A DNA stretch of 36,061 bases from an uncultured Rickettsiales bacterium. GTDB lineage: Bacteria; Pseudomonadota; Alphaproteobacteria; Rickettsiales; CAZAGG01. How positions within the stretch are numbered: position 1 is the stretch's first letter; each line of letters starts with the position of its first letter. The notes under the pieces were generated by a model. The model was not told the DNA's origin, searched no databases, and was given only the letters and a program-made list of their open reading frames with translations. Below, piece after piece: positions 1 through 34,176 of the stretch. A program made the translations under genes and the position numbers. The stretch is taken from positions 1 through 36,061 of the forward strand of contig CAYTOJ010000002.1 in the NCBI GenBank assembly GCA_964439415.1, in the 5' to 3' direction.

Positions 1-1085
1 CTACGGCATCATTAACTTCGCGGTCATAGAAGAAATTCACATTCTCCAGCGCGTCATTCATGTTACCGCTGTCCTCCCCTACTTTAAACATCCTGACAAC
101 CAGGTTGGGGAACTGGCCTGACATACGCAGGGAATTGGTGAGAGTATTACCTTCTGACACTAATTTGCGGATTGTATCTACCGCCTCAACTATCACCAGG
201 TTGTTAACCACGCTGCGCGCCGTTTCCAGGCTATCTAGTATATCAACGCCGCTTTTGAACATAACACTGAAGAAATGTGTGAAGCGGGAAAGGTCAATCT
301 TTCTTATCGTACTGCCGATAAAAGGTATTTTCAGCATCACCGCATCAAAATTATAGGCGAATGTTTTGGAAAAGCGGTGAGCCATTCTGATGGATATTAC
401 AAGGATTACGGGAAAGCTTATTATCAAGTACCAATAGTCCCCAAAGAATTTTGAGAATGCTATCAGGGCCTTGGTATGCCCCGGCAGGTTGAATCCTTGC
501 GCCAGAAGAAAATCCACCAGCTTCGGCACTACCTGCGTCATAAGTATGGCAATCACCCCGGTTATCACCATAGTCAGGGCTATCGGGTAGCGCAGTGCTT
601 TTTTCACCTTACGGCGCAAATCAGACACCCATTTGATATGCTTGGATATCTGGTAAAACGCCTCTGACAGCCGCCCGGTGCGCTCCCCTGTTTTAATCAG
701 CCCGGTAAATACATTATTGAAGATTGTCGGGTGTTTTTTCAGGGCTTCGGATAACAATTCACCATTTTTCACCGTCTCGTAAATGTCAGTCATAATATTT
801 TTGAGGGTTGGTGACTCGGTTGAATCCCTTACATCCGCCAGCGAATCCAGCAGCGGCACGCCTGCGCGGTCAAGCTGCTCAAGATGCAGGCAGAGTATTA
901 TCATATCTTTTATTTTCACTCTGCTGCCGAATATTCCGCTTCTTGCCCTTGCCATTTTATAGTCAATCAGGGTCAGGTGCATGGGCTTTAAGCGCTCTTC
1001 AAGGTCGAACTCGTTCGCGGCTATAAGTTCGCCCTGAAACTTCTTTCCATCGTCATTGATAGCACTGTAACGGAATATCGGCATA
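1..1085 (-). CDS. Type II secretion / type IV pilus inner-membrane platform protein, GspF/PilC/MshG family (3' end runs off the window)
   Basis: It is absent from the ORF track because it stays open to the window edge. Manual minus-strand translation from ATG 1085-1083 gives MPIFRYSAINDDGKKFQGELIAANEFDLEERLKPMHLTLIDYK...GVPLLDSLADVRDSTESPTLKNIMTDIYETVKNGELLSEALKKHPTIFNNVFTGLIKTGERTGRLSEAF...TM segments...DILDSLETARSVVNNLVIVEAVDTIRKLVSEGNTLTNSLRMSGQFPNLVVRMFKVGEDSGNMNDALENV. This is the duplicated GspF-type cytoplasmic repeat with TM helices. It lies directly downstream of the GspE-family ATPase. Confidence 0.85.
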
Positions 1086-1256
1086 TACTAATCGCACTTC
1101 AAAAGTTGGGATAGTTGTGCATGGAATGCGATTAGTATATTTTATTATATTAAGCGCTCTAGCGCCGCGCAGGCTGCGCCAGCATAGCTGGCTAGTCGTC
1201 GCTTTGCTCCTCCATATACTCCTGTCTTTTCAAGAATTGAAACGACAGGAGTATAT
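1085..1256. repeat. Cluster of hairpins in the ATPase/platform intergenic spacer, with TATAC...GTATA-ended stems related to module C of the tripartite element
   Basis: Inverted repeat atactaatcgca (1085-1096) / tgcgattagtat (1127-1138). Inverted repeat atatactcctgtc (1214-1226) / gacaggagtatat (1244-1256), with a palindromic loop ttcaagaattgaa. Three short GC hairpins lie in between (gcgctctagcgc, gcgcaggctgcgc, ccagcatagctgg). Confidence 0.7.
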
Positions 1257-5750: not shown

Positions 5751-6995
5751 TCAGAACTGCACCGCAAAGCGTGTTCCTACAACAAATGCGTTATCCAGAG
5801 CCGGATCAGTTCCGGGATTTACAATATACTGCACGTCTGGCTGAATATTCAGCCATGGCAGCAGATTATCGCTGTAGGTAAGCTCAATCGCGGTTTCCGC
5901 ATCATCGAAATTTGCGCCTAGTGCCCTTTGTGATTCCATAAAATCACCTGAGTTATGCACGCCTGACATCGCCAGCCCCAGTGCGCCCCCTTCGCGGCCT
6001 GGGACGAGGCCAACATAAACCATGCCAGCACTCCAGGCATAATCGAACAGATTTACTGATTCATCAGCAAAACCTAAACGCCCGAATACGGTAAGCCCTT
6101 CATCCTTTGACTGAGCCTCCAAATATACCTTTTTCTCAGCTAAAATATATGCGCCCTGGCTATGCTTATTGACGGTGTTGCCATTAGCATCTACGTCCCG
6201 GTGAGTAGCAAAACGCTCAGTATAACGCCAGCCACCAACTGCCACCTTTAAGCCCTCAGGATTATACCCGGCCTCTGCTACCAGCAGTGCGCCATCGTTA
6301 TCGTTCAATTCTATCTGCGTACCACTTGGATTATTTGGGTCACCCGGCACGCCGTCCAGCACTGCCGCCTGGATATAACTATCATTTGTTGGCCTCACTC
6401 GCAGACGCGCCGCCAGTGATGTAAACGGGAAGATGGACGGCCCGTTGATTCCTGACTGCGCAATATCAGTGCCGATTCCATAAGTGGAGTGTATAAACAG
6501 CAGGCTTGAATCGGTTATATAAAACTCTGAATTCAAATCATAGAGACCACCGAGTATGGATATGCGGTCATCATAAAAATTCTGCTGAAGCCACGCCTGA
6601 TAAAGCTTTCCGGTAGCTTGTGGCGTTTCAATATTATTAATTCCCTGAGCACTGCCAACCAGGTCACCATCCGGCCTGCCGCCGTTATTGTTAAGAAACT
6701 GAACAAAAGCGGTTGTGCCTTTTGCGCCTATTAATTTCTCACCATCCAGATTCACCACAACATCAAGGTTATCCAGAACCCTCGTACCCTCTTTAATGCC
6801 GCCGCTGACATTGCCAAAAACATCCAGTTTATAGACCGCTTCAACATCCACGCCTTTATCGGCTAATTTCTGGCGGGATCCGCCCCAGCCTCCGGTTAGT
6901 TTTGAATCAAACTCGCCCTGCTCAGCAGCACTTGCAGAAATGGGATTCACAGCCAGCAGCCCTAAAACAGCGGATATTTTCAGTATATTATTCAT
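5751..6995 (-). CDS. Carbohydrate-selective porin, OprB family
   Basis: The ORF runs 5751..7028. The likely start is M12 (ATG 6995), giving the signal peptide MNNILKISAVLGLLAVNPISASA. It contains LTGGWGGSRQKLADKGVDVEAVYKLDVFGNVSGGIKEG...LDGEKLIGAKGTTAFV, and the C-terminus ends in F. Confidence 0.75.
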   Translation of the reverse strand: MNNILKISAVLGLLAVNPISASAAEQGEFDSKLTGGWGGSRQKLADKGVDVEAVYKLDVFGNVSGGIKEGTRVLDNLDVVVNLDGEKLIGAKGTTAFVQFLNNNGGRPDGDLVGSAQGINNIETPQATGKLYQAWLQQNFYDDRISILGGLYDLNSEFYITDSSLLFIHSTYGIGTDIAQSGINGPSIFPFTSLAARLRVRPTNDSYIQAAVLDGVPGDPNNPSGTQIELNDNDGALLVAEAGYNPEGLKVAVGGWRYTERFATHRDVDANGNTVNKHSQGAYILAEKKVYLEAQSKDEGLTVFGRLGFADESVNLFDYAWSAGMVYVGLVPGREGGALGLAMSGVHNSGDFMESQRALGANFDDAETAIELTYSDNLLPWLNIQPDVQYIVNPGTDPALDNAFVVGTRFAVQF

Positions 6996-7068
6996 GTGGC
7001 ACTCATTTATTTGTTGCACCACCAGCACTATTGCGAATCATTCTTAACAGCAAGGATTTTTTTATAGT

Positions 7069-7211
7069 TATACTGCTCGCGTTTTTGATGTGTGGATTTT
7101 TTGCAGGCAAGTAGCGAGCAGTATATACGCGGATTCGGCTGGATTGGCGGCCATGCGCAAAACATAAAAGATATACCTAATCGCACTCTTGAAGTGCGAT
7201 TAGGTATATAC
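7069..7211 (+). repeat. Tripartite palindromic element, copy 1 (orientation A-B-C)
   Basis: Module A is the hairpin tatactgctcgcg...gcgagcagtata (7069-7125). Module B is cgcggattcggctggattggcggccatgcgcaaaac (7128-7163). Module C is the hairpin atatacctaatcgcactcttgaagtgcgattaggtatat (7171-7209). Its translation produces the spurious ORF 7028..7216(-), which shares FMFCAWPPIQP with ORF 19197..19409(+). Confidence 0.9.
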
Positions 7212-7229: not shown

Positions 7230-8276
7230 CTAATACTCAGCAGGGTGGAAGCCGTAGTGATTTAGCCATCTTTGGTCGCTATCGAAAAAGCTGCGCAAAT
7301 CCGGCATACCATATTTCAGCATCGCCAGGCGCTCAACACCCATGCCAAATGCAAAGCCCTGCCATTCATCCGGGTCTATGCCGCAATTAGTTAATACATT
7401 CGGATGAATCATGCCGCAGCCGAGAATCTCCAGCCAGTCCTTATCCATGCCGATTTTAACCACGCCGCCATCTCTTGAGCATCCTATATCCATCTCCGCC
7501 GATGGTTCGGTAAACGGAAAATAACTGGGGCGGAAACGCACCGGAACATCTGCAATACCGAAAAAATCCTGAGCGAATCGCGCAAGGCAACCCTTAAGAT
7601 GCGCCATGTTTATTCCCTTATCCACTATAAACCCCTCAACCTGGTGGAACATAGGGGTGTGAGTCATGTCTGAATCAGAGCGGTAGGTTTTACCCGGCGA
7701 GATTACCCTGAATGGAGGTTTACCTGACTTCATCACCCGCACCTGCATGTTAGATGTATGAGTACGCAGTAAAACGCGCCTGCCATCCGGCGCATCCGGC
7801 AGGTAGAACGTATCGTGCATTTCTCTCGCAGGGTGGCCTAAGGGGAAGTTCAGAGCTGTGAAGTTATGCTCGTCATCATCAATTTCCGGCCCATCTGAAA
7901 CTTGAAACCCCATACTGGAGAATATGGAAACAACATCAGCAATCACTTTGCTTACTGGGTGTATCCTGCCCTGAAGCTCAGGGCGTGTAGGCAGGGTTAC
8001 ATCAACCTTTTCCGCTTTTACTACCGCCTCAATTTCACACTTTATTAACAGCGTTTTGCGCTGTTCTATCTGCTGAAGCAGATTTTCCTTGAATGCGTTG
8101 AGGGAGGCTCCCCTGGTTTTACGCTCGTCCGGAGGCAACCCCGCCAGTTCTTTCAGTGCTTCAGTGAGGCGGCCTTTTTTGCCCAGCCACGCAATACGGA
8201 TATCCTCCAGTTGCTGCGTAGACTGGCAGACTTCAACCGCTTCAGTTACCTCTAATTGGAAATCAGCAACTTCCAT
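7230..8276 (-). CDS. pheS: Phenylalanine--tRNA ligase alpha subunit
   Basis: 348 aa with class II aaRS motifs (FRPSYFPFTEPSAEMD; GFAFGMGVERLAMLKYG). It follows rplT in the conserved rpmI-rplT-pheS order. Confidence 0.95.
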   Translation of the reverse strand: MEVADFQLEVTEAVEVCQSTQQLEDIRIAWLGKKGRLTEALKELAGLPPDERKTRGASLNAFKENLLQQIEQRKTLLIKCEIEAVVKAEKVDVTLPTRPELQGRIHPVSKVIADVVSIFSSMGFQVSDGPEIDDDEHNFTALNFPLGHPAREMHDTFYLPDAPDGRRVLLRTHTSNMQVRVMKSGKPPFRVISPGKTYRSDSDMTHTPMFHQVEGFIVDKGINMAHLKGCLARFAQDFFGIADVPVRFRPSYFPFTEPSAEMDIGCSRDGGVVKIGMDKDWLEILGCGMIHPNVLTNCGIDPDEWQGFAFGMGVERLAMLKYGMPDLRSFFDSDQRWLNHYGFHPAEY

Positions 8277-15888: not shown

Positions 15889-16860
15889 TTAATTGTTACT
15901 GTTTACCGCCGCGACCGCCTCGCGGGTGAGGTCTGAAGCCCTGCCTTCGTCTATATACAAAGTGCGGCCTGTGAATGTCTGGTTAGGGTGCAGCGAGAAA
16001 TATACTTTATTAGAATTGGGGTTTACAGCAACCACCCCATTTCTCTGCCCTATGGTATATCCGCCATTGCCCATATCTCTGGCATTAGCCCGCCATGCAG
16101 GGAAAATGGCGTTAACGTCCGAAGTATGCCACTCAAAATCCACCTGATTGCGCGAAACTTTTACTATTCTGACACCCTCTACCATATCGCCGGGTTTTAT
16201 CATTGTATCATTTATCCATATACTCCATGATCCAGGCGCAAAATAGGCGATGGAATTAAGATAGATAATCGGCGTGATTATATTTCTGGGAGCTTCAGGG
16301 GCTTTAGTGGTTGGTGATTGATTAAGCAGGGGAATACTGCCCAAGATTTGCGCGGCATCAGGCTTTGGTGCATTTGTATCCAGCTGCTGCTTTTTCCTGA
16401 TTTTCATTTCCTGCCCCAATCCCGCCGCTTCCCTTAGTTTTCTCAGCGTGATCTCATCGTACATTATACTGCCGCTATTCCAGATTGGGGTAGTAAAGAA
16501 AGATTTCTCACCAATACCATTATTCTTATCTGCAAGTACTGTCTCAGGCTGCCTTTTTGGCTTTTTCGCAATAGGCCAGCTTCTTATCTCATCTGTTTTA
16601 TCCTGATTGTTACCCCCCCCGAACAAATCCCCTATACTTGCATTAGCGGCGGATACGCAGCAACACAGTATAATAATTGAGGCAAGCAATGCTGATTTAT
16701 ATCCTCTATAAGACTTCTCTCGAAACTCGCTGCGGTGAGCAAAATGCGCGAAGCGAGCATCGCAGAAACGCAAGTGTACTTTTGGGTACATGCGGATTTG
16801 AGAAGCGCAGCGACAAGCGAGTTTGCCAGCGCAGTAGAGTTTGGAGAGAAGTCTGTTCAT
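15889..16860 (-). CDS. Secreted pilus-assembly accessory protein, PilP/GspC-HR/MshK-like by motif. The first ~57 codons of the maximal ORF are repeat-derived.
   Basis: The maximal ORF is 323 aa. ATG 16860 overlaps the upstream stop (ATGA). Codons 3-50 are encoded by the family-2 repeat (16711-16854). A native-looking start is TTG 16689, preceded by AGAGGA, and gives the signal peptide M-LASIIILCCCVSAANA. The motif WSIWINDTMIKPGDMVEGVRIVKVSRNQVDFEW resembles the PilP/GspC/GspB strand motif. Confidence 0.6.
   Translation of the reverse strand: MNRLLSKLYCAGKLACRCASQIRMYPKVHLRFCDARFAHFAHRSEFREKSYRGYKSALLASIIILCCCVSAANASIGDLFGGGNNQDKTDEIRSWPIAKKPKRQPETVLADKNNGIGEKSFFTTPIWNSGSIMYDEITLRKLREAAGLGQEMKIRKKQQLDTNAPKPDAAQILGSIPLLNQSPTTKAPEAPRNIITPIIYLNSIAYFAPGSWSIWINDTMIKPGDMVEGVRIVKVSRNQVDFEWHTSDVNAIFPAWRANARDMGNGGYTIGQRNGVVAVNPNSNKVYFSLHPNQTFTGRTLYIDEGRASDLTREAVAAVNSNN
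16711..16854. repeat. Family-2 inverted-repeat element, full copy (144 bp)
   Basis: The termini agacttctctcgaaactcgctgcg... and ...cgcagtagagtttggagagaagtct are inverted repeats. The core gcgaagcgagcatcgcagaaacgcaagtgtacttttgggtacatgcggatttgag recurs at 26521-26575. The right half recurs at 29676-29734. Confidence 0.9.
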
Positions 16861-17507
16861 GTACCCCCCGGAGCTGGTATAGCTGGATCAGGCGCAAATT
16901 TAAATGCCAGCAGGTAGAGTGAGAATTTACCATCCACCATGGCAATTTCATTATCCATGGATATCTGCCTGATATTATCTACGCTTGCCTGGGATTTTTT
17001 CAGAATTTCAGCCGTTCCCATAATCAGCAACCCTGGAAATTTTGCCTTAACGGCATCCAGGAACTTGAAAATACTTTCATCGCTGTAGGATGACATCTCA
17101 ATATCAACCTGGCTGAAAACCATGGATAGCATATTTCTTTTAAACTCAGGCGCCTGTAACTCAACTGGCTGTTTGATTTTTACCTTCAGCCCGGTGATGC
17201 TGTACACATCCTTGTTCTGCTCAAGTGCTTCCAGTAAAATATCGGATTTTATCGCGGATTCCCCATACTTCTCTTCGCTTAGTTTATTAAATAAATCTAT
17301 GTTTCCGCTAGCTTTTTTGCCTTCATCCTCAGCTTTTAATATTTTCGCGTTCAATTGCGCCAGAGCATTCTGTTTCTGGGTTTTATCCTCCTCAATTTTT
17401 GTTGCGTATGATGATACCCCCAGGTAAATGCCGCCAAACACGGCAAGCAGACTTATAAACACTACGGACTCTATAATAATCCTGCGGAGTAGTATTTTTA
17501 TTTTCAT
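16857..17507 (-). CDS. Bitopic membrane protein with PilO/GspM/MshJ-like architecture
   Basis: 216 aa. It has an N-terminal TM helix (VVFISLLAVFGGIYLGV), a coiled coil (EEDKTQKQNALAQLNAKILKAEDEGKK), then an alpha/beta domain of about 110 aa. Its start overlaps the upstream stop (TAATG at 17505-17509). Confidence 0.55.
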   Translation of the reverse strand: MKIKILLRRIIIESVVFISLLAVFGGIYLGVSSYATKIEEDKTQKQNALAQLNAKILKAEDEGKKASGNIDLFNKLSEEKYGESAIKSDILLEALEQNKDVYSITGLKVKIKQPVELQAPEFKRNMLSMVFSQVDIEMSSYSDESIFKFLDAVKAKFPGLLIMGTAEILKKSQASVDNIRQISMDNEIAMVDGKFSLYLLAFKFAPDPAIPAPGGT

Positions 17508-19360
17508 TACTGCACCACCCCAGGAAGCTGGCTGTTGTCCGGAGCTTTCGGCAAAGTAATCTGCATGTCTATGGTTGTAATTTCATCCATATTTTTTGCA
17601 GCCGATTGCCTGGAATAATCCACTTCCATCACATCCTTACCCGCTAGCTCACCTGGAAGCTTGGCTATTGCAATATTATGATCCCCCAGTTGTTCTTTTA
17701 AGGATGCCGTTTTTGAAGAAGCCATCTTTTTTAGTGTTTTCTCATCGCCGTACTTTGTGAAATCCAGCTTTATATCGCACTCCATTGCGCCATCTATAGT
17801 AACCGGGGGTGCAGCCGGATCGTTCTTGCTAAATATTGCCACTGCATTTTTATTCTGCCACTTGAAAGCTGAGACATTCATTGTTTCATCAACCTCAGTC
17901 GCCAGAACCTCCATCAGATAGTACGGGTCATGTATCAATGATGCTAATTTATTATGAATATCCGTAACATTGATCACCTTCTCAAGATTAGTCGGCAAGG
18001 CTGAGTTGGAACTCTGTAATGTTAGTATTCTGGAGTTTGCCTGCTTCTGCTTATCCTCAATTTCCACAACCTCCAGTTTTGCTGATATTGCGCCGTAAAT
18101 TTCATAAGCCGCTGCCAGAAGTAACAGAGGAACCAGTATTCCCGCCGCCACTCGCCCCCCCAGAATCGCCCGCTGGAACAAAAATAACTTTGCTATGTAT
18201 GGTGTTTGCAGGGATACTTTTTTGCGTGGAAGTGCTGCAACGCTAACCGCAAGGAACACATCCGAGTACTTATCCTGCTTTTCAGCAGTATCCTTCATTC
18301 CCAGCAGTTCACATGCCTGGTAAGGAGTGAAGGAGTCCACATTGCTGGCGAGTATTTTATTCCTGTCTACAAACCCCAGTACCGCTTCCGCTGCCACAAT
18401 CACAACGTTCAGTTTCGATGCATCAGAATAACCAAGCCGCTTGATGTATTCCCTGGTGGTTGAGTATTCCTGCTCAATACTGCCGGCCAGTGCTTCAGGT
18501 GGGTCATCAAGCGCTGCCTGCGTTACCCTGGTGAAAGCCATTTTGCCATTTTTCAGAACAATCTGCCTGAGCCCGCCAACACGGTTATGGCCTATAAATA
18601 CAAACCAGTCCGGCGGAGTGTATTTATTATTATTTTTATCCTGTGATTTTTTTCCTTTTTTAATGTCCTTTGCTTCTGCTACTGGCTTGGCCTCAGCTTT
18701 TTTTGCTTTTTTCGCTTTTGGCTCAGGTGTCCAGTGAATTTTTTTATCTAAATCCAGCAATGCCTTCTCTGATTCCAGCGGTATAAGAAAAACACCACCG
18801 AACTTGTTCGGAAGGTTCGAGGCTATGTTTATCCATTCAGAAAGGGGATTCGGCGGCACTGAGATAAACATGTACTGCCATTCTTTTTTCTTATCCGGGC
18901 TGCGCCCTATACATATAAATGCTTTTAAGTCATCAGCCGCAAAGTCGCGCTCCAGTTTTCTTTTCGCTATCTTATCAGCGCTCATTTTAGCTACAGGCGG
19001 GAGATTCTGCACCGTATATGTCTGATCCTGAATATCCAGCAGAATGGATATCGGCGCACGTTTATTCAAGGCAAATAGGTCATTAATCGCTGCCATATCC
19101 TTAGGCGCTGAAGAGAGCGCGAACGCCCGTCGCACTACCTTCCTGCCGCTTAGGTAAAGCACTATCGCCCCATCCTCCCCTATTATCAGGACAAACTTGT
19201 TACCTGATTTTGGAGGCGCTTTTTCGCTTTTTTCCTTACTCTTTTTCAGCCCAAGTCTCCATATATGTACATCTTTTATGTTTTGCGCATGGCCGCCAAT
19301 CCAGCCCCATGCGCGTCTATACTGCTCGCGAATGAACTGCAAAGAACCCGCACTCTTCAT
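17507..19360 (-). CDS. Pilus/T2SS assembly protein with GspL- or fused PilM-PilN (MshI)-like architecture. The start codon and first ~33 codons are repeat-derived.
   Basis: 617 aa. It has a cytoplasmic domain (KFVLIIGEDGAIVLYLSGRKV...), a Lys-rich insert (KAKKAKKAEAKPVAEAKDIKKGKK), a single TM helix (VAAGILVPLLLLAAAYEIYGAI), a coiled coil and a periplasmic domain. The N-terminal MKSAGSLQFIREQYRRAWGWIGGHAQN is encoded by tripartite-element copy 2. Confidence 0.6.
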   Translation of the reverse strand: MKSAGSLQFIREQYRRAWGWIGGHAQNIKDVHIWRLGLKKSKEKSEKAPPKSGNKFVLIIGEDGAIVLYLSGRKVVRRAFALSSAPKDMAAINDLFALNKRAPISILLDIQDQTYTVQNLPPVAKMSADKIAKRKLERDFAADDLKAFICIGRSPDKKKEWQYMFISVPPNPLSEWINIASNLPNKFGGVFLIPLESEKALLDLDKKIHWTPEPKAKKAKKAEAKPVAEAKDIKKGKKSQDKNNNKYTPPDWFVFIGHNRVGGLRQIVLKNGKMAFTRVTQAALDDPPEALAGSIEQEYSTTREYIKRLGYSDASKLNVVIVAAEAVLGFVDRNKILASNVDSFTPYQACELLGMKDTAEKQDKYSDVFLAVSVAALPRKKVSLQTPYIAKLFLFQRAILGGRVAAGILVPLLLLAAAYEIYGAISAKLEVVEIEDKQKQANSRILTLQSSNSALPTNLEKVINVTDIHNKLASLIHDPYYLMEVLATEVDETMNVSAFKWQNKNAVAIFSKNDPAAPPVTIDGAMECDIKLDFTKYGDEKTLKKMASSKTASLKEQLGDHNIAIAKLPGELAGKDVMEVDYSRQSAAKNMDEITTIDMQITLPKAPDNSQLPGVVQ

Positions 19361-19376
19361 ACGCGAGCAGTATAGA
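19278..19376 (-). repeat. Tripartite palindromic element, copy 2 (inverted; modules B + A only, C degenerate)
   Basis: Module B is ttttgcgcatggccgccaatccagccccatgcgcg (19281-19315). Module A is tatactgctcgcg (19318-19330) ... cgcgagcagtata (19362-19374). The ATG of the 617-aa ORF (19360-19358) lies in the module A loop. Confidence 0.9.
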
Positions 19377-19491
19377 GATAACAGTCCAGAACGGCGTTGT
19401 GTAGCCTGACATTCTATCTATGTTAGCCAAATGTACTAAAAAAATCTTAAAACTTGGAAAACATCGCCAATTCTGCTAATCGACTTAACAT

Positions 19492-20574
19492 ATGACGATA
19501 GGGAAAAAACAGAGAGCCGCCGTGGCAATGTCCGGCGGGGTGGATAGCTCAGTCACGGCGGCATTGCTTGCGCGTGAAGGTTTTGAAGTAATAGGGCTTA
19601 CCATGCAGTTGTATAACCAGGGAAAAGCAACCGCAACCGGGGGCAAAACCTGCTGCGCCGGGCAGGATATAAGGGATGCAGCGATGGTGGCGCAAAAAAT
19701 GGGATTCCCCCATTATGTGCTGAATTATGAGGAACATTTCAAAACCTCCGTAATCAATGATTTTGCCGATACTTACCTGAGCGGGGAGACCCCCATACCC
19801 TGCGTGCGCTGTAATCAGACCGTAAAATTCAGGGATATGCTGGGAGCCGCCCGCGACCTTGGCGCTGATTTTCTCGCAACCGGGCACTATGTGAAAAGGG
19901 TGGAAACAGAAAACGGCCTGGAGATGCATAAAGCTGCGGATACCGAGAAGGATCAAAGTTACTTCCTGTTCGCCACAACCAGGCAGCAGCTTGAGTATTT
20001 GCGCTTCCCGCTCGGGAATTTAAGAAAAAGTGAGATCCGCGCTATCGCCAGCGATCTCAACCTGCCCGTAGCCACAAAACCTGACAGCCAGGATATCTGC
20101 TTCGTTCCAACCGGGAAGTACACTGAAGTGATAGAGAAGTTCCGCCCCGGCGCGCTGGATAAAGGTGATATAAAACATATTGATGGCCGCCTGCTGGGGC
20201 AGCATAACGGCATTATTAACTTTACCGTAGGGCAGCGCCGTGGCCTTAGCATCTCGTACCCCGTGCCACTGTATGTAGTAAGAATAGACGCAGCCAGTAA
20301 TACTGTATACGCGGGAGAACTCGCAGCACTTGCGAAAGCCAAAGTGAAAGCGAAAGATTTTAACTGGTTAAAGCCAGGAGCAGATTCTGAGATAAACACT
20401 TTGTTAAAGTGCCGTTCAACTTCAGCCGCAGTCCCGGCGGTTTTAAAGAAAATAACTGACTCTATAGTAGAGGCCACATTTATTGATCCGCAGATGGGCA
20501 TCTCACCAGGCCAGGCACTGGTGGCATATAATGGAGATACAGTTATAGGCGGCGGCTGGATAACTGATGATTAA
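19492..20574 (+). CDS. mnmA: tRNA 2-thiouridine(34) synthase
   Basis: 360 aa with the PP-loop AMSGGVDSSV, PCVRCN and DSQDICF catalytic Cys contexts, and a typical length. Confidence 0.92.
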   Translation: MTIGKKQRAAVAMSGGVDSSVTAALLAREGFEVIGLTMQLYNQGKATATGGKTCCAGQDIRDAAMVAQKMGFPHYVLNYEEHFKTSVINDFADTYLSGETPIPCVRCNQTVKFRDMLGAARDLGADFLATGHYVKRVETENGLEMHKAADTEKDQSYFLFATTRQQLEYLRFPLGNLRKSEIRAIASDLNLPVATKPDSQDICFVPTGKYTEVIEKFRPGALDKGDIKHIDGRLLGQHNGIINFTVGQRRGLSISYPVPLYVVRIDAASNTVYAGELAALAKAKVKAKDFNWLKPGADSEINTLLKCRSTSAAVPAVLKKITDSIVEATFIDPQMGISPGQALVAYNGDTVIGGGWITDD

Positions 20575-24169: not shown

Positions 24170-24179
24170 TGTTTGCTTA

Positions 24180-24280
24180 GCCCCCTCCCTAACCCTCCCC
24201 CGTAAACGGGAGAGGGAACTACGGAGCAAGTTCTCTATATATTCCCTCCCCTGTTTACGGGGGAGGGTTAGGGAGGGGGC
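24180..24280. repeat. Long GC-rich palindrome (REP-like hairpin) immediately downstream of tatB
   Basis: The left arm is gccccctccctaaccctcccccgtaaacgggagaggga (24180-24217) and the right arm is tccctcccctgtttacgggggagggttagggagggggc (24243-24280). The outer 28 bp are perfectly complementary, with a loop of about 25 nt. Confidence 0.9.
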
Positions 24281-24311
24281 AAATACCATTCTAAACCAGG
24301 CGTTTATAACC

Positions 24312-26480: not shown

Positions 26481-26676
26481 AGGGCATCTCTATTAACTCG
26501 CTTATGCGAGCTTGAGTAGCGCGAAGCGAACATCGCAAAAACGCAAGTGTACTTTAGGGTACATGCGGATTTAAGAGCTAAGATTAGTTACCAAATGAGT
26601 AAACCTCATTTGTGTAGCTTAGCGCAGCCAGCGACAAGCAAATTTGCCGCAGAAGTAGAGTTAATAGATGTGCCCT
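26481..26676. repeat. Family-2 inverted-repeat element, copy with variant termini and an internal insertion of about 40 bp
   Basis: The termini agggcatctctattaactc (26481-) and gagttaatagatgtgccct (-26676) are inverted repeats. The core is shared with 16744-16800. An extra hairpin-bearing insert (aaatgagtaaacctcattt) lies at about 26577-26617. The element starts 7 nt after the rlpA stop. Confidence 0.85.
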
Positions 26677-29675: not shown

Positions 29676-29734
29676 TTAGCGCAGCCAGCGACAAGCAAAT
29701 TTGCCAGCGCAGTAGAGTTTGGAGAGAAAAGTCT
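29676..29734. repeat. Family-2 element, right-half fragment
   Basis: ttagcgcagccagcgacaagcaaatttgccagcgcagtagagtttggagagaaaagtct closely matches 16805-16854 and 26620-26660. It starts 5 nt after the lptA stop. Confidence 0.85.
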
Positions 29735-30111: not shown

Positions 30112-30297
30112 AATATATACCGCTATCGTTTGAAGTGCCTCAATTTTCTCTTTCACTCCGGCGGTATATCTTTTGTTTGTGGCAAATCTTACAAAATAAA
30201 AACCCCGTAAAATTCATAAAGTTCCAACAGCACTGACAACAGCTTCGGCGCGAATAATATATCTTGAATAACGCACTTCTGTTTGTATGCTTTTCGT

Positions 30298-30717
30298 ATG
30301 AAGGCATTGACTAGGAACAGTCTTATATCTCTGGCAACGGCAGCAGCCTTCCTTCTGCATGTTCTATTACCCTTCTTTGCCGTTTATCAGTTGTCTGTTT
30401 CAAGCTCCAGGGTGATTCCTCCCCTTTTTGGTGAAAAGGTAATTCTCTGCAGCAGTGAGGGATTCAAACTGGTAAACTGGAGTGACCTGCGGGATGATAA
30501 AAAACTCCCCAGCCCACATAAACAATACCAATGCGCATTATGTTATGTGTCTGCACATGTGCAGGGTATTTACTCCACTAAAGCAGAACTTGTTTCCACT
30601 TCACAAATTTCAAATTATTATAAACTTCCATTCCTATTACACCAGAATTCTGCTTCACGCGAATTAACCTGGCTGGCATTTCTTACCCGCTCACCACCAT
30701 TATCCTCCGCCGTTTAA
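30298..30717 (+). CDS. DUF2946-family membrane protein (CxxC)
   Basis: The track ORF starts at TTG 30283, and the likely ATG is 30298 (MKALTRNSLISLATAAAFLLHVLLP). ILCSSEGFKLV, YQCALCYVSAH and a C-terminal TRSPPL match my recollection of the DUF2946 pattern (EICS..G.K.V / HC..C..HA / R.PP). Confidence 0.6.
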   Translation: MKALTRNSLISLATAAAFLLHVLLPFFAVYQLSVSSSRVIPPLFGEKVILCSSEGFKLVNWSDLRDDKKLPSPHKQYQCALCYVSAHVQGIYSTKAELVSTSQISNYYKLPFLLHQNSASRELTWLAFLTRSPPLSSAV

Positions 30718-30718
30718 C

Positions 30719-30857
30719 TATACCTATCGCACTTCAAGAGTGCGGTAGGTATATTTTTTTATGTTTTGCGCATGGCCGCCAAGCCAGCCCCATGCGCGTC
30801 TATACTGCTCGCGTTATAAATGCAAAGAATCTGCACTCTTCATACGCGAGCAGTATA
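30719..30857 (-). repeat. Tripartite palindromic element, copy 3 (inverted: C-B-A)
   Basis: Module C is tatacctatcgcacttcaagagtgcggtaggtatat (30719-30754). Module B is ttttgcgcatggccgccaagccagccccatgcgcg (30764-30798). Module A is tatactgctcgcg...cgcgagcagtata (30801-30857). Confidence 0.9.
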
Positions 30858-30890
30858 ATAAATTTAATCAAATTACGAAGGATAATACTT

Positions 30891-31916
30891 ATGCGAAAAT
30901 TTTTATGCGCAGGCATTAGTGTGCTTGCAATTACTTATGCCGAAACAACTACTGCCAATATACCACTTATTCGTCCGGCAGACCATGCGCCGATTGGCGT
31001 AATGGGAGATCATCTCCATAAAAAAGGCGAATGGATGGTTGGATACCGCTATGCCCAATCTTCCACTTCCGGATACCGCAGTGCCTCGCGCAGTCTGAGC
31101 AATGCCGATGTTATGCATCAGTATGGCGAAGCAGCAACTGAAATGGACATGGGAATGCACATGTTTGAAGTAATGTACGGCATTACCGATAACTTTAACA
31201 TTATGATCATGCCGCAGTATATGCAGATGGAAATGCTGCATAAATCATCCCATGGGCATGGCCATTCCCATGAGCACAGCATAGAAGGCTTCGGCGATAC
31301 CGATGTCGTAGGATTATACTCTATATTCCGCCGTAAGAATGGCGAATATAATCACAAAGCCCATATCAACTTCGGTATCAGCCTTCCAACAGGCGCTATT
31401 GATAAGACTTTTACCGACCATCATCACAATGTTTATAATTTGCCATACAGTATGCAGTTTGGCAGCGGTACTTATGATCCTGTTATAGGGCTTACTTATA
31501 CAGGTAAATCAACTGACTGGTCATGGGGTGCGCAAACGCTGAATTATATTCGGCTTGGCAAGAACAATAACGGTTACAGGCAAGGCAATAAATATACCGC
31601 TAATACCTGGGTTGCAAAAAACATTGGCAAGTCGGTCAGTGCATCACTCCGGCTGGAGGGGGAGGCCTGGAATAATGTTTCGGGACTGGATAAATCCCTG
31701 CCCCGCACTGCAATAGCCGGGGCAGATCCTGATGAAGTGGCCGGGCGGCGCATACGTGCTCACGCCGGGCTTAACCTTCTTGGCGGAGAATCGCATGGCC
31801 TGCTAAGCAAACATCGGCTTGCCGTGGAAGTTGGCGCGCCCATATATCAGCATTACTCAGGGGCGCAGCCTGATGAGAAATACCGCTTTACTGTAGGCTG
31901 GCAGTTTGCTTTCTAA
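30891..31916 (+). CDS. Outer-membrane beta-barrel of the 'transporter' / MetA-pathway (Phenol_MetA_deg-like) family with a Met/His-rich segment
   Basis: The track ORF starts at 30792 inside the repeat. The likely start is ATG 30891 (AAGGA RBS), giving the signal peptide MRKFLCAGISVLAITYA. It contains HAPIGVMGDHLHKKGEWMVGYRY, EMDMGMHMFEVMYG, MPQYMQMEMLHKSSHGHGHSHEHS, GFGDTDV and MQFGSGTYDPVIGLTY, and the C-terminus is WQFAF. Confidence 0.65.
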   Translation: MRKFLCAGISVLAITYAETTTANIPLIRPADHAPIGVMGDHLHKKGEWMVGYRYAQSSTSGYRSASRSLSNADVMHQYGEAATEMDMGMHMFEVMYGITDNFNIMIMPQYMQMEMLHKSSHGHGHSHEHSIEGFGDTDVVGLYSIFRRKNGEYNHKAHINFGISLPTGAIDKTFTDHHHNVYNLPYSMQFGSGTYDPVIGLTYTGKSTDWSWGAQTLNYIRLGKNNNGYRQGNKYTANTWVAKNIGKSVSASLRLEGEAWNNVSGLDKSLPRTAIAGADPDEVAGRRIRAHAGLNLLGGESHGLLSKHRLAVEVGAPIYQHYSGAQPDEKYRFTVGWQFAF

Positions 31917-31973: not shown

Positions 31974-32112
31974 TATACTGCTCGCGTCTCTGATGTGTGT
32001 TTTTTTGAGGTTAGTTTGCGAGCAGTATAGACTCGCATGGGGCTGGTGGGGAGGCCATGCGCAAAAAAATAAGATATATACTTATCGCACTCTTGAAGTG
32101 CGATAAGTATAT
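31974..32112 (+). repeat. Tripartite palindromic element, copy 4 (A-B-C)
   Basis: Module A is tatactgctcgcg...tgcgagcagtata (31974-32028). Module B is ctcgcatggggctggtggggaggccatgcgcaaaaa (32031-32067). Module C is atatatacttatcgcactcttgaagtgcgataagtatat (32074-32112). Confidence 0.9.
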
Positions 32113-32209: not shown

Positions 32210-32410
32210 TATATTGCTCGCGTATCTGATGTGCGGACTTAAGTGCAGTTAATCCGCGAGCAGTATACGTGCGCATGGGGCTGGATTGCCTGTCGTTTGA
32301 GGCTATGCCTACCGAAGCTTTAGCGTAGGTAGGTTTTAGCGAAGGATGAGCGGCCATGCGCAAACATATAAACAAGATACCTAAAACACACTTAAGTGTT
32401 TTGGGTATAT
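32210..32410 (+). repeat. Tripartite palindromic element, copy 5 (A-B-C, with a ~60-bp insertion splitting module B)
   Basis: Module A is tatattgctcgcg...cgcgagcagtata (32210-32266). Module B-left is gcgcatggggctggattgcc (32270-32290). The insert carries a hairpin, cctaccgaagctttagcgtaggtagg. Module B-right is gcggccatgcgcaaac (32351-32366). Module C is gatacctaaaacacacttaagtgttttgggtatat (32376-32410). Confidence 0.85.
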
Positions 32411-32427
32411 ATGCGAATCCTGGAACT

Positions 32428-34176
32428 ATGGAAGAGCAGAACTACATTGATGGTTTGAGTGGCCGCCTTATCCTGCGTAAAATCAGGAAAAGGAATATGC
32501 GGCTTTATGTTGTGACTGGCGCTATCATGCTGTCAGGCTTCACCGCGGTTGCGCTCAAGCACGGCTGGAACTTTCCCGCAGAAAAACCCGCCTACGCCGG
32601 GCTGGAAAAGTGCGCCGGCACTTTAGTCACGCCGGAATGCCTTAAACTGGATGGTGTTCTGGGAAGGCCGGATCGTGATAATTACCAGATAGCCTTTAAA
32701 TCCGCCAGAAATGGCAATCCTATGGCCTTGGAAATGGCTCTTAAAAACCTCAGGGATAAAAAACTTGTAAGCTATGTTGAAGCACAGAGGCTGACTGATG
32801 GCATAGCGGCTGTTCGAGCCTCAGAGTTTTCTTTCTGGATGCTCACCCATACCAGCCACCCACTGCGCGGACAAGTTCGGATAGCCTTTGAAAAAAAATA
32901 TCCAACTGAGTTTAATGAATATTCCTATAATGAAAGTCTACGCAAAACCTCTGATTCCACTCCGGTAGCTTTGAGCCAGATGGATGGTGCAAGCACAGAT
33001 TTGAAGCTTCAGAATATAGTAAACCGGGAGTTTAATTTATTCCTCACCGGGGATAGTGGGGATAACGAAAAACCAGTTAATGCCAATGTGGCCAGAAGTG
33101 GTAAAACAAGGCAGTCCCATAGCTTCAAGAAAGGTTTAAACGCCTGGCAGAATGGTGATTTCAGTGAAGCGGGAATCCTGTTCAGGAATGTGGCCTTTGA
33201 GAGTGTGCCGGATGCTGAAAAGGCAGCAGCATCATTCTGGGCATACCGCGCCAGCATGATTAACAATGATTTTCAGCAGGCTGAACAGCATCTGCAAGAG
33301 GCAGCCGGGTATAAGTGGGGTTTTTACAGCCTCCTGGCAGCACAGGTTCAGGGCATGAAAAATTCATGGTACACCGCGCAGCAACTGGAGATGGAGCGCG
33401 CCAGGTTTGAGCGCTTCAAAAATAATCCAGCAATCATCACAGCCAAGGCACTGACAGAAATCGGGGAGAATAATCTGGCGCGGGAAGTGCTGGAGCGGGA
33501 AGTATCCACCCTGGATATGGAAAAGAAGCTTTTTGTTACTATCATAGCTGATTATTTAGGCTTACAGCCTGACAGCGTCCCGGGGCAGCGCGTGGAATTA
33601 AACAGCGTGGATGTTCTGAAAACAAAAGAATACCACATACCTAATCTGAAACCGGAGGGAGGTTTCAAGCTGGATAAAGCTCTGTTATACGCCATCATGA
33701 AAAACGAATCCGGCTTTATAAGCACGGCTATCAGCCCGCAGGGGGCATTGGGATTAATGCAGGTAATGCCGGAGACTGCCGGATATATAAGTAACTATGA
33801 TCCGCAGCAGGCGGCGCAGGCGCTAATGATCCCTGAGAAAAACATCAGCCTGGGGCAGAAATACCTGCAATACCTGATGAAGCAGCGCGATATTGGCCGC
33901 AATCTTTTTTATGTGCTAAGCGCATATAACGCAGGCCCCGGTAATTTTGGCAAATGGCGGGAAAATATTCAGGATGGTAATGATCCCCTGCTGTTCCTGG
34001 AACTTATTCCCGCCGATGAAACCAGGGAATATGTGCAGAACGTAGTAGCGGATTACTGGATATATAAAAGCCTGTTTAAGGAGGACCACGACTCTATCCT
34101 GGAAATTGCAAGCGGCAACTGGCCAATGTACCCTGCCCGCCCGGTCTCCCCCTTTGAAACCGCCAGAAAATCCTGA
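32428..34176 (+). CDS. Soluble lytic murein transglycosylase (Slt70-like, SLT domain)
   Basis: The track ORF starts at 32356 inside repeat copy 5. Likely starts are ATG 32428 or ATG 32497 (MRLYVVTGAIMLSGFTAVAL anchor/signal). The C-terminal SLT domain has AIMKNESGF, GLMQVMPETA and LSAYNAGPGN. Confidence 0.85.
   Translation: MEEQNYIDGLSGRLILRKIRKRNMRLYVVTGAIMLSGFTAVALKHGWNFPAEKPAYAGLEKCAGTLVTPECLKLDGVLGRPDRDNYQIAFKSARNGNPMALEMALKNLRDKKLVSYVEAQRLTDGIAAVRASEFSFWMLTHTSHPLRGQVRIAFEKKYPTEFNEYSYNESLRKTSDSTPVALSQMDGASTDLKLQNIVNREFNLFLTGDSGDNEKPVNANVARSGKTRQSHSFKKGLNAWQNGDFSEAGILFRNVAFESVPDAEKAAASFWAYRASMINNDFQQAEQHLQEAAGYKWGFYSLLAAQVQGMKNSWYTAQQLEMERARFERFKNNPAIITAKALTEIGENNLAREVLEREVSTLDMEKKLFVTIIADYLGLQPDSVPGQRVELNSVDVLKTKEYHIPNLKPEGGFKLDKALLYAIMKNESGFISTAISPQGALGLMQVMPETAGYISNYDPQQAAQALMIPEKNISLGQKYLQYLMKQRDIGRNLFYVLSAYNAGPGNFGKWRENIQDGNDPLLFLELIPADETREYVQNVVADYWIYKSLFKEDHDSILEIASGNWPMYPARPVSPFETARKS

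Follow-up and report, generated by a model that had tools for sequence, protein, structure and literature searches.

Miniature non-coding transposons (MITEs) that target TA in bacteria and the palindromic repeats of the Rickettsiales are both well described, and IS630/Tc1-mariner is the bacterial family known for TA duplication. TA termini together with TA duplication have been reported for the Correia, RUP and ERIC elements (PMC2229807, Table 1), and RUP of Streptococcus pneumoniae is a textbook MITE linked to an IS630-family transposase (PMC2229807). The RPEs of Rickettsia have inverted ends of ~12 bp, some of them with TA termini (PMC2229807). Elements of the REP kind are defined by a GTAG or CGTC tag at one end of a palindrome, and RPE-4 and RPE-6 are CGTC-tagged REPs (PMC3733652).

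The window analysed here, a stretch of 36,061 nucleotides, is contig C2 of a 1.915-Mb assembly (G000) from an uncultured Rickettsiales lineage, with 198 contigs, 47.8% GC and a completeness of 97.65%. It carries five copies of a three-hairpin repeat of ~138 bp, which is a real miniature non-coding transposon inserting at TA. The family is new but belongs to a well-known kind of element, and no new kind of biology is involved. A ~138-bp unit with a TA target, moved by an enzyme acting in trans, is probably the correct description, and MITE of the Correia/RUP type is a better name than REP or RPE. What speaks for it was observed directly: the repeats themselves, their inverted ends, one clean TA duplication, symmetric flanks, modularity and a mostly intergenic location.

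The Correia elements of Neisseria (CREE/NEMIS) and the element share most of these traits. Both are non-coding, ~100-155 bp long and closed by inverted ends of ~24-26 bp; both have TA at the two termini and a TA target that is duplicated; both number in the hundreds and account for 1-2% of a ~2-Mb genome, mostly intergenic and often by gene starts; and a partner transposase is known for neither (PMC2229807, PMC10969869). The element differs in its alphaproteobacterial host, in the separate circulation of its modules and in its fold: its ends pair with internal copies of themselves to give three hairpins, whereas Correia forms one long end-to-end stem. The end sequences of the two appear unrelated. 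RUP and the element are likewise both short and non-coding, with inverted ends and a duplicated TA target. In contrast to the element, however, RUP has a partner with matching ends, IS630-Spn1; no such partner was found for the element, and the IS630 ends in a second genome of the order (G313, discussed below) differ.

Copies in the window and across the assembly

The five copies reported by the first-pass annotation were all recovered by repeat finding and alignment, with exact bounds at TATAC...GTATA (Table 1). The isolated small hairpins that it had listed are also real and have the same type of ends as the element. Peptide strings shared between open reading frames, which had been taken as an independent signature, exist but are merely the translated repeat. 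Copy 1 lies between pheS (7230-8276, minus strand) and the gene for an OprB-type porin (5751-7028, minus strand), and its hairpin B has the variant left arm GCGGATTCGG. The insert in the B loop of copy 5 reads CCTGTCG..GCCTACCGAAGC..TAGCGTAGG.., a variant common to ~25 copies genome-wide, and the same copy has the C' stem variant CCTAAAACAC/GTGTTTTGGG.

Table 1. Element copies and related hairpins in the window, and the only transposase gene detected in the assembly.
Feature	Position	Strand	Length	Remarks
Copy 1, full	7069-7208	+	140 bp	TATAC...GTATA bounds
Copy 1, hairpin A	7069-7125			
Copy 1, hairpin B	7129-7158			followed by an A-rich spacer
Copy 1, hairpin C	7172-7208			
Copy 2, truncated	19263-19374	-		A and B, without C; TATAC...GTATA bounds
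Copy 3, full	30719-30857	-	139 bp	TATAC...GTATA bounds
Copy 4, full	31974-32111	+	138 bp	downstream of ORF 30792-31916
Copy 5, full	32210-32409	+	200 bp	~60 bp inserted in hairpin B loop
Small hairpin element	1084-1139		56 bp	TATAC...GTATA; same end type, TATACTAATCGCACTTCAAAAGTTG
Small hairpin element	1215-1255		41 bp	TATAC...GTATA; TATACTCCTGTCTTTTCAAGAATTG
Small hairpin	30116-30168		53 bp	TATAC...GTATA; matches terminal hairpin of the second (164-bp) family
Sole transposase gene	C62:204-1178	-	325 aa	IS5/IS1182-like; below NCBIfam curated cut-offs

An iterated nhmmer search of the whole assembly gave 240 non-overlapping loci. Fifteen of these scored better with a second family, described below, and were removed. 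The remaining 225 loci comprise 122 full A-B-C copies, 37 solo C, 26 B-C, 21 solo A, 10 A-B and 9 smaller fragments. They are present on most contigs at a density of ~1 locus per 8.5 kb and occupy ~1.3% of the assembly, which bears out the very high genome-wide load that had been predicted from the window. When found alone, A measures 57 bp, C 35 bp and BC 83 bp. The modal length of full copies is 137-138 bp, with 97 of the 122 between 130 and 147 bp; the others are mostly 164-211 bp, lengthened by inserts that usually sit in the B loop.

Identity to the consensus ranges from 61 to 96% (median 89%), a spread that may mean that the activity of the element is old. The genome-derived consensus, TATACTGCTCGCGTATCAAGAGTGCGGATTTTTTGCAGTTAATTCGCGAGCAGTATAGACGCGCATGGGGCTGGATTGGCGGCCATGCGCAAAATATAAAAAATATACCTATCGCACTCTTGAAGTGCGATAGGTATA, corresponds to 46 codons; two of its six frames are open, and stops occur in the other four. 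The element has no coding capacity for a transposase and falls within the MITE size range of about 50-400 bp. The initial description of a non-autonomous, high-copy, structured repeat was right, and the many further copies that it had predicted were found.

Terminal repeats and hairpins

Both ends of the element carry the same imperfect inverted repeat, composed of TATAC, ~10 nt and TCAAGAGTGCG. The first 27 nt agree with the reverse complement of the last 27 nt at 20 positions, and the TATAC and TCAAGAGTGCG blocks are identical; the terminal inverted repeats that mark a MITE are thus present. In hairpin A, the outer 13 nt (TATACTGCTCGCG) recur inverted 31 nt further in, and hairpin C is formed by the other end, a palindrome of 35 bp that is nearly perfect. 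The second family, of 164 bp with ~96-115 full copies, has a GC-rich core and central hairpin unrelated to those of the first. Its ends are nevertheless of the same type, TATAC / TCAAGAGTG, with TATACTCCTCGCGTTTCAAGAGTG and TATACCCCTATCGTCTGAAGAGTG. The same ends around different cores are as expected of a transposase binding site, which is what these ends are predicted to be.

Folding the consensus reproduces hairpins A, B and C as originally described. As RNA it reaches -68.4 kcal/mol (z = -9.9), a value that no shuffled sequence out of 200 matched, and the complementary strand and DNA folding parameters give the same three-hairpin fold. A search of Rfam gave no match at the gathering score, the only matches with E < 1 being eukaryotic miRNA hairpins far below threshold, and four characteristic sequence strings of the element were found nowhere in the searchable literature in this context.

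The statement that stems are conserved while loops diverge holds on average. Across 91 full copies, column identity is 0.90 at paired and 0.82 at unpaired positions, and 92.5% of stem cells are canonical, versus 25-52% when the partners are slid by 1-3 columns. It fails in the ~15% of copies whose B left arm is GCGGATTCGG, in which three of eight pairs are broken. Selection at the level of structure, which had been suggested on the same grounds, likewise stands only in part. Compensatory double changes do cluster in hairpin C, where a subfamily has CCTAAAACACT/AGTGTTTTAGG in place of CCTATCGCACT/AGTGCGATAGG; these changes are, however, few events inherited by many copies and come from a small number of subfamilies, and one sizeable subfamily has a broken B stem. 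Hairpins A and C, which coincide with the ends, have kept their palindromes better than hairpin B.

Gene context and a possible terminator role

The high degree of pairing in the stems would also fit an element kept by the host for its structure, as a transcription terminator, as a site of processing by RNase III or RNase E or as a means of stabilising mRNA, with its transposon features secondary or fossil. Transcripts of Correia and ERIC elements are known RNase substrates (PMC10969869), which we count in favour of this explanation. Read from the C side, that is antisense, hairpin C (16-18 pairs) followed by a T-run matches the pattern of an intrinsic terminator, and the pattern is seen in three of the four window copies that keep hairpin C. 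In copies 1 and 3 the terminator-like orientation directly follows a gene end: hairpin C and T-run of copy 1 are flagged on the minus strand just downstream of pheS, and on the plus strand of copy 3 hairpin C (30719-30753) is followed by TTTTTTT and begins 2 nt past the stop of ORF 30283-30717.

The distribution over the assembly argues the other way. Based on crude gene calls (1683 ORFs, 86.5% coding), 65 full copies lie in tandem, 30 in divergent and 9 in convergent spacers, versus 59, 26 and 19 expected from spacer length (p = 0.04). Subject to the same crude calls, this depletion of convergent spacers is the opposite of what a recruited terminator would show. In co-directional spacers the element runs A-to-C along the genes in 45 cases and against them in 20 (p = 0.003). 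Such an orientation bias would be in keeping with a host role, but the terminator-like orientation is the rarer of the two between co-directional genes. On a simple reading, the terminating orientation would be tolerated at operon ends and selected against inside operons. The subfamily with a broken B stem also tells against maintenance by the host, as does the failure to find the element in 40 further genomes of the order, one of them from the same family; we consider such maintenance an unlikely primary explanation. Secondary effects on the host are likely, given the terminator-like hairpin C, the copies at or over gene starts and one in-frame copy. A promoter inside the element was considered and discarded, the scan having flagged none within copies.

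The cumulative GC skew of the window is lowest at about 19000-20000, and there, at the 19361-19491 spacer, the genes change from the minus to the plus strand. A replication origin may lie here, or the region may simply be one of divergent promoters.

Insertion sites and target

One filled site could be compared cleanly with empty ones. The site C35:2960-3096 is filled (GGGAC-TATACC...CAGTATA-TTTG), and the paralogous sites in C89 and C45 are empty (GGGAC-TA-TTTG), which indicates that the element entered a TA and that TA now stands on both sides. The target-site duplication of a MITE is therefore seen in one clean case, and two others are ambiguous: in the C50/C178 pair the junction is blurred by divergence, and at C71:1450-1613 a family-2 copy is nested in the TA-rich end of a family-1 copy, where a (TA)n run obscures the junction. 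In the same paralogous region as the clean case, a solo C on contig C76 occupies the next TA downstream, with the right junction GGTA-TA-GTCGG, which suggests that the 35-bp C module inserts on its own. The element ends in TA-TA, and a duplication is formally indistinguishable from a terminal TA borne by the element itself.

The flank preference of 94 sharply bounded copies is symmetric (T rare at -1, 9%, and A rare at +1, 2%), and orientation shows no bias relative to local GC skew (76/132, p = 0.10). Symmetry of both ends and target speaks for a DDE enzyme that cuts and pastes double-stranded DNA, and against single-strand HUH transposition.

HUH transposition would apply if the element were REP/BIME-like or derived from IS200/IS605; a Y1/HUH enzyme of the RAYT type would then act on the hairpins in single-stranded DNA and insert them beside a short target word without true duplication. 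Several properties are compatible with such an origin: every module is a strong hairpin, the arms of hairpin C change together in a subfamily, and the TA duplication cannot formally be separated from element-borne TA ends. As in the REPs and BIMEs of enterobacteria and pseudomonads, hairpin modules occur between genes both singly and in mosaics. The element departs from that group in its terminal inverted repeats, its TA target and its much larger units, 138 bp against palindromes of 20-40 bp. Its subterminal block TCAAGAGTGCG is inverted, not direct, between the ends, and the symmetric flanks and lack of GC-skew bias are equally at odds with Y1 activity. Its ends are TATAC...GTATA; neither GTAG nor CGTC (PMC3733652) is conserved as a tag, and the bases before hairpin B vary (GAC, TAC, AA). 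A CGTC on hairpin B was rejected as a tag for its wrong orientation and wrong conservation. The assembly, which is 97.65% complete and fragmented, has no RAYT (Y1, PF01797; 0 matches, with a control search matching 6 of 14 named genomes) and no TnpB. On these counts the label REP-like, applied at first, had to be given up, and a REP or IS200 origin seems quite improbable.

Local or segmental duplication, or an artefact of assembling the metagenome bin, is refuted by the unrelated flanks (paralogous at three loci only), the spread over most contigs, the sharp boundaries and the divergence between copies (median pairwise identity 82%), although the assembly is in pieces (198 contigs) and 29 of the loci are no more than 200 bp from a contig end. 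The copies are thus dispersed, as those of a MITE are. Interspersed repeats probably break the assembly, as the 29 loci near contig ends indicate.

Distribution in other genomes

A BLAST search with the consensus against 40 relatives, among them the sole further genome of the family, found no copy of the element; a single weak match of 33 nt (E 3.8e-5) came from one relative (G019). When the 24-nt end was searched with up to 3 mismatches in 400 genomes of the order, 143 matches were found in G000, 16 in G313 and 1-2 in each of three others, and a control word gave none. For the terminal 11-mer TATACTGCTCG, 122 occurrences were counted in G313 and 15 in G203, both of genus g114 (control word 0-1), with the remaining 59 genomes of that family at background level (0-3). 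These include the Rickettsia-like genus g21, in which the terminal 24-mer is at background level too.

G313 (G313:C1) is a complete, Rickettsiaceae-like genome of 1.6 Mb with 35% GC, in which the 11-mers form the ends of ~125-190-bp elements bounded by TATAC...GTATA. The genomes of its family (f20, with g21 and g114) carry the Rickettsia Sca4 antigen domain, which fits Rickettsiaceae; the order would then be Rickettsiales. The end type is thus common to two distant lineages of the order and is not the abundant repeat of Rickettsia-like genomes.

Neither the consensus nor a G313 element matched plasmids by BLAST. Element-specific patterns had no match in metagenome contigs, a result of little weight given that the set may exclude the records of the element's own genome. 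The pattern ACTGCTCGCG-N25-40-CGCGAGCAGT, run across genome contigs, was abandoned as too unspecific, with 87 GC-rich chance palindromes from unrelated phyla.

Proposed mechanism and candidate transposases

In the mechanism that we propose, the mobile unit would be the ~138 bp from TATAC to GTATA, with each end formed by the same ~26-nt inverted repeat (TATAC, ~10 variable bases, TCAAGAGTGCG). These ends would be bound by a transposase acting in trans, which would excise the unit and paste it into a TA dinucleotide, duplicating the TA. The three hairpins arise from the pairing of each terminus with an inverted internal copy of itself, so that hairpins A and C amount to mini-elements, of 57 bp and 35 bp respectively, with the GC-rich B between them. 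The unit is therefore a composite of modules that exist alone and that, at least sometimes, insert alone. The enzyme would be a DDE transposase of the IS630/Tc1-mariner type, now lost or unassembled; this type is suggested by the TA duplication, on the model of that family and of RUP (PMC2229807).

Searches of the assembly for DDE_3 (IS630), rve, Y1_Tnp (RAYT/IS200) and the TnpB zinc-ribbon gave no match, although control genomes did. The remark that no transposase lies nearby can thus be extended, as regards IS630/DDE_3, rve, Y1/RAYT and TnpB, to the whole assembly. An autonomous insertion sequence with the same ends, as MITEs can have, was not found in it either. Since Correia also has no known partner, a partner insertion sequence is not an obligatory feature of a MITE, and the elements are orphans in this assembly, like Correia in Neisseria. 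Insertion sequences often drop out of metagenome bins, and absence from the bin is therefore not proof that the organism lacks the enzyme.

Two transposase genes were considered as partners and rejected. The IS5/IS1182-like gene of Table 1 has a best similarity to the element equal to the median of random genome chunks, and no matching inverted repeats. G313 contains ~16 identical copies of a 1112-bp IS630-family element with the ends TA, then TACCATTTCCCC; these share only TATAC with the MITEs, whose end motif is absent within 1.5 kb of the IS630 copies. No long element with MITE ends was present in the 25% of G313 that was scanned, and a 2.9-kb interval bounded by two ends contains an ordinary 724-aa ORF and represents two separate small elements.

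Overlap with coding sequence

The element is mostly intergenic. Among 132 end-to-end model matches (ten of which were later moved to the second family, leaving 122), a single one is flanked by a long open frame on both sides. It lies in C92:4839-6941 (locus L096:1501-3600), a 700-aa ORF for a DUF6077 membrane protein. Alignment with six homologues revealed two clean insertions that are absent from all six, after which conserved residues resume in frame. The insertion at about residues 286-355 is a different, G/C-run-rich repeat, and that at about residues 475-519 is this element in reverse orientation. A 7-nt tandem repeat, GGCTTCC, of at least three units was observed just downstream of the second insert.

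The RPEs (RPE-1 to RPE-8 and later) resemble the element in host order and as palindromic repeats of 100-150 bp. Its 138 bp equal 46 codons with two stop-free frames, and one copy is in frame in a conserved gene, as RPEs are. Frequent in-frame insertion, on the other hand, was not found: one of 122 full copies is intragenic, a single well-supported case, as compared with 19 of 44 for RPE-1 in R. conorii (PMC2229807, PMC10969869). The CGTC tag of RPE-4 and RPE-6 is missing as well. The term RPE-like, used in the first-pass annotation, thus fits the behaviour of the DUF6077 copy, which is rare for this element family, and does not fit the terminal sequence, which is not amplified in Rickettsia-like genomes. 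The end-word counts, an indirect comparison, gave no sign of membership in the RPEs.

In the window, copy 2 extends over codons 1-33 of a 617-aa pilus-assembly ORF (17507-19360, minus strand), among them the ATG at 19360. Residues 1-36 match only other element copies, and relatives align from residues 26-56. No ATG, GTG or TTG occurs between residues 8 and 66, and the sole canonical starts ahead of the conserved N-terminal motif (ATG at residue 1, TTG at residue 7) are inside the repeat, for which reason the element may supply the start codon of this gene. An alternative start would be the CTG at residue 38, which is preceded by GGAG. The A end of copy 3 overlaps the predicted start of ORF 30792-31916, and copy 5 that of an SLT transglycosylase ORF (32356-34176).

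Three other repeats were noted alongside the TATAC families. The G/C-run-rich repeat of ~150 bp (85 segments in the assembly; e.g. C59:1-156) translates to ...PPPSPLCLRWGKPRVR..., and several copies are inside long open frames (325, 757 and 316 aa); it may perhaps be a more RPE-like family than the three-hairpin element. A repeat of ~154 bp, GCGCGAAGCGAGCATCGCAG...CAGCGACAAGCAAATTTGCC...AGTAGAGTT, unrelated to the TATAC families, occurs in the window at 16746-16850, 26519-26671 and 29686-29728, with 45 segments genome-wide. Finally, a 42-nt inverted repeat with 93% complementarity, at 24177-24283 of the window, belongs to a ~109-bp palindromic family of 17 copies (TTAGCCCCCTCCCTAACCCTCC...).

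Implications

Short interspersed repeats, belonging to at least six families, account for ~4% of this reduced 1.9-Mb genome, and the element is a further instance of a heavy MITE burden, here in an uncultured Rickettsiales lineage. The family is useful rather than surprising. Three of the five copies in the window cover gene starts as predicted, and the start codons and N-termini annotated there are consequently not to be trusted without checking. In the DUF6077 gene, a conserved gene for a membrane protein, the family also offers one clear case of a MITE carried in frame. The end sequence common to a Rickettsiaceae genus could also help to trace the enzyme that moves these elements.

A broader and tentative proposal, which we regard as doubtful at present, is that the end type TATAC, ~10 nt, TCAAGAGT(G/T) defines an orphan MITE superfamily, common to a deep-branching uncultured Rickettsiales lineage and one Rickettsiaceae genus and served by an unrecognised transposase. 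Two-end mini-elements of 35-57 bp would be its basic units, would join into composites via their TA ends and would occasionally become protein segments. If this were true, the superfamily would be a possible missing link from TA-targeting MITEs to the protein-coding palindromes (RPEs) of Rickettsia.
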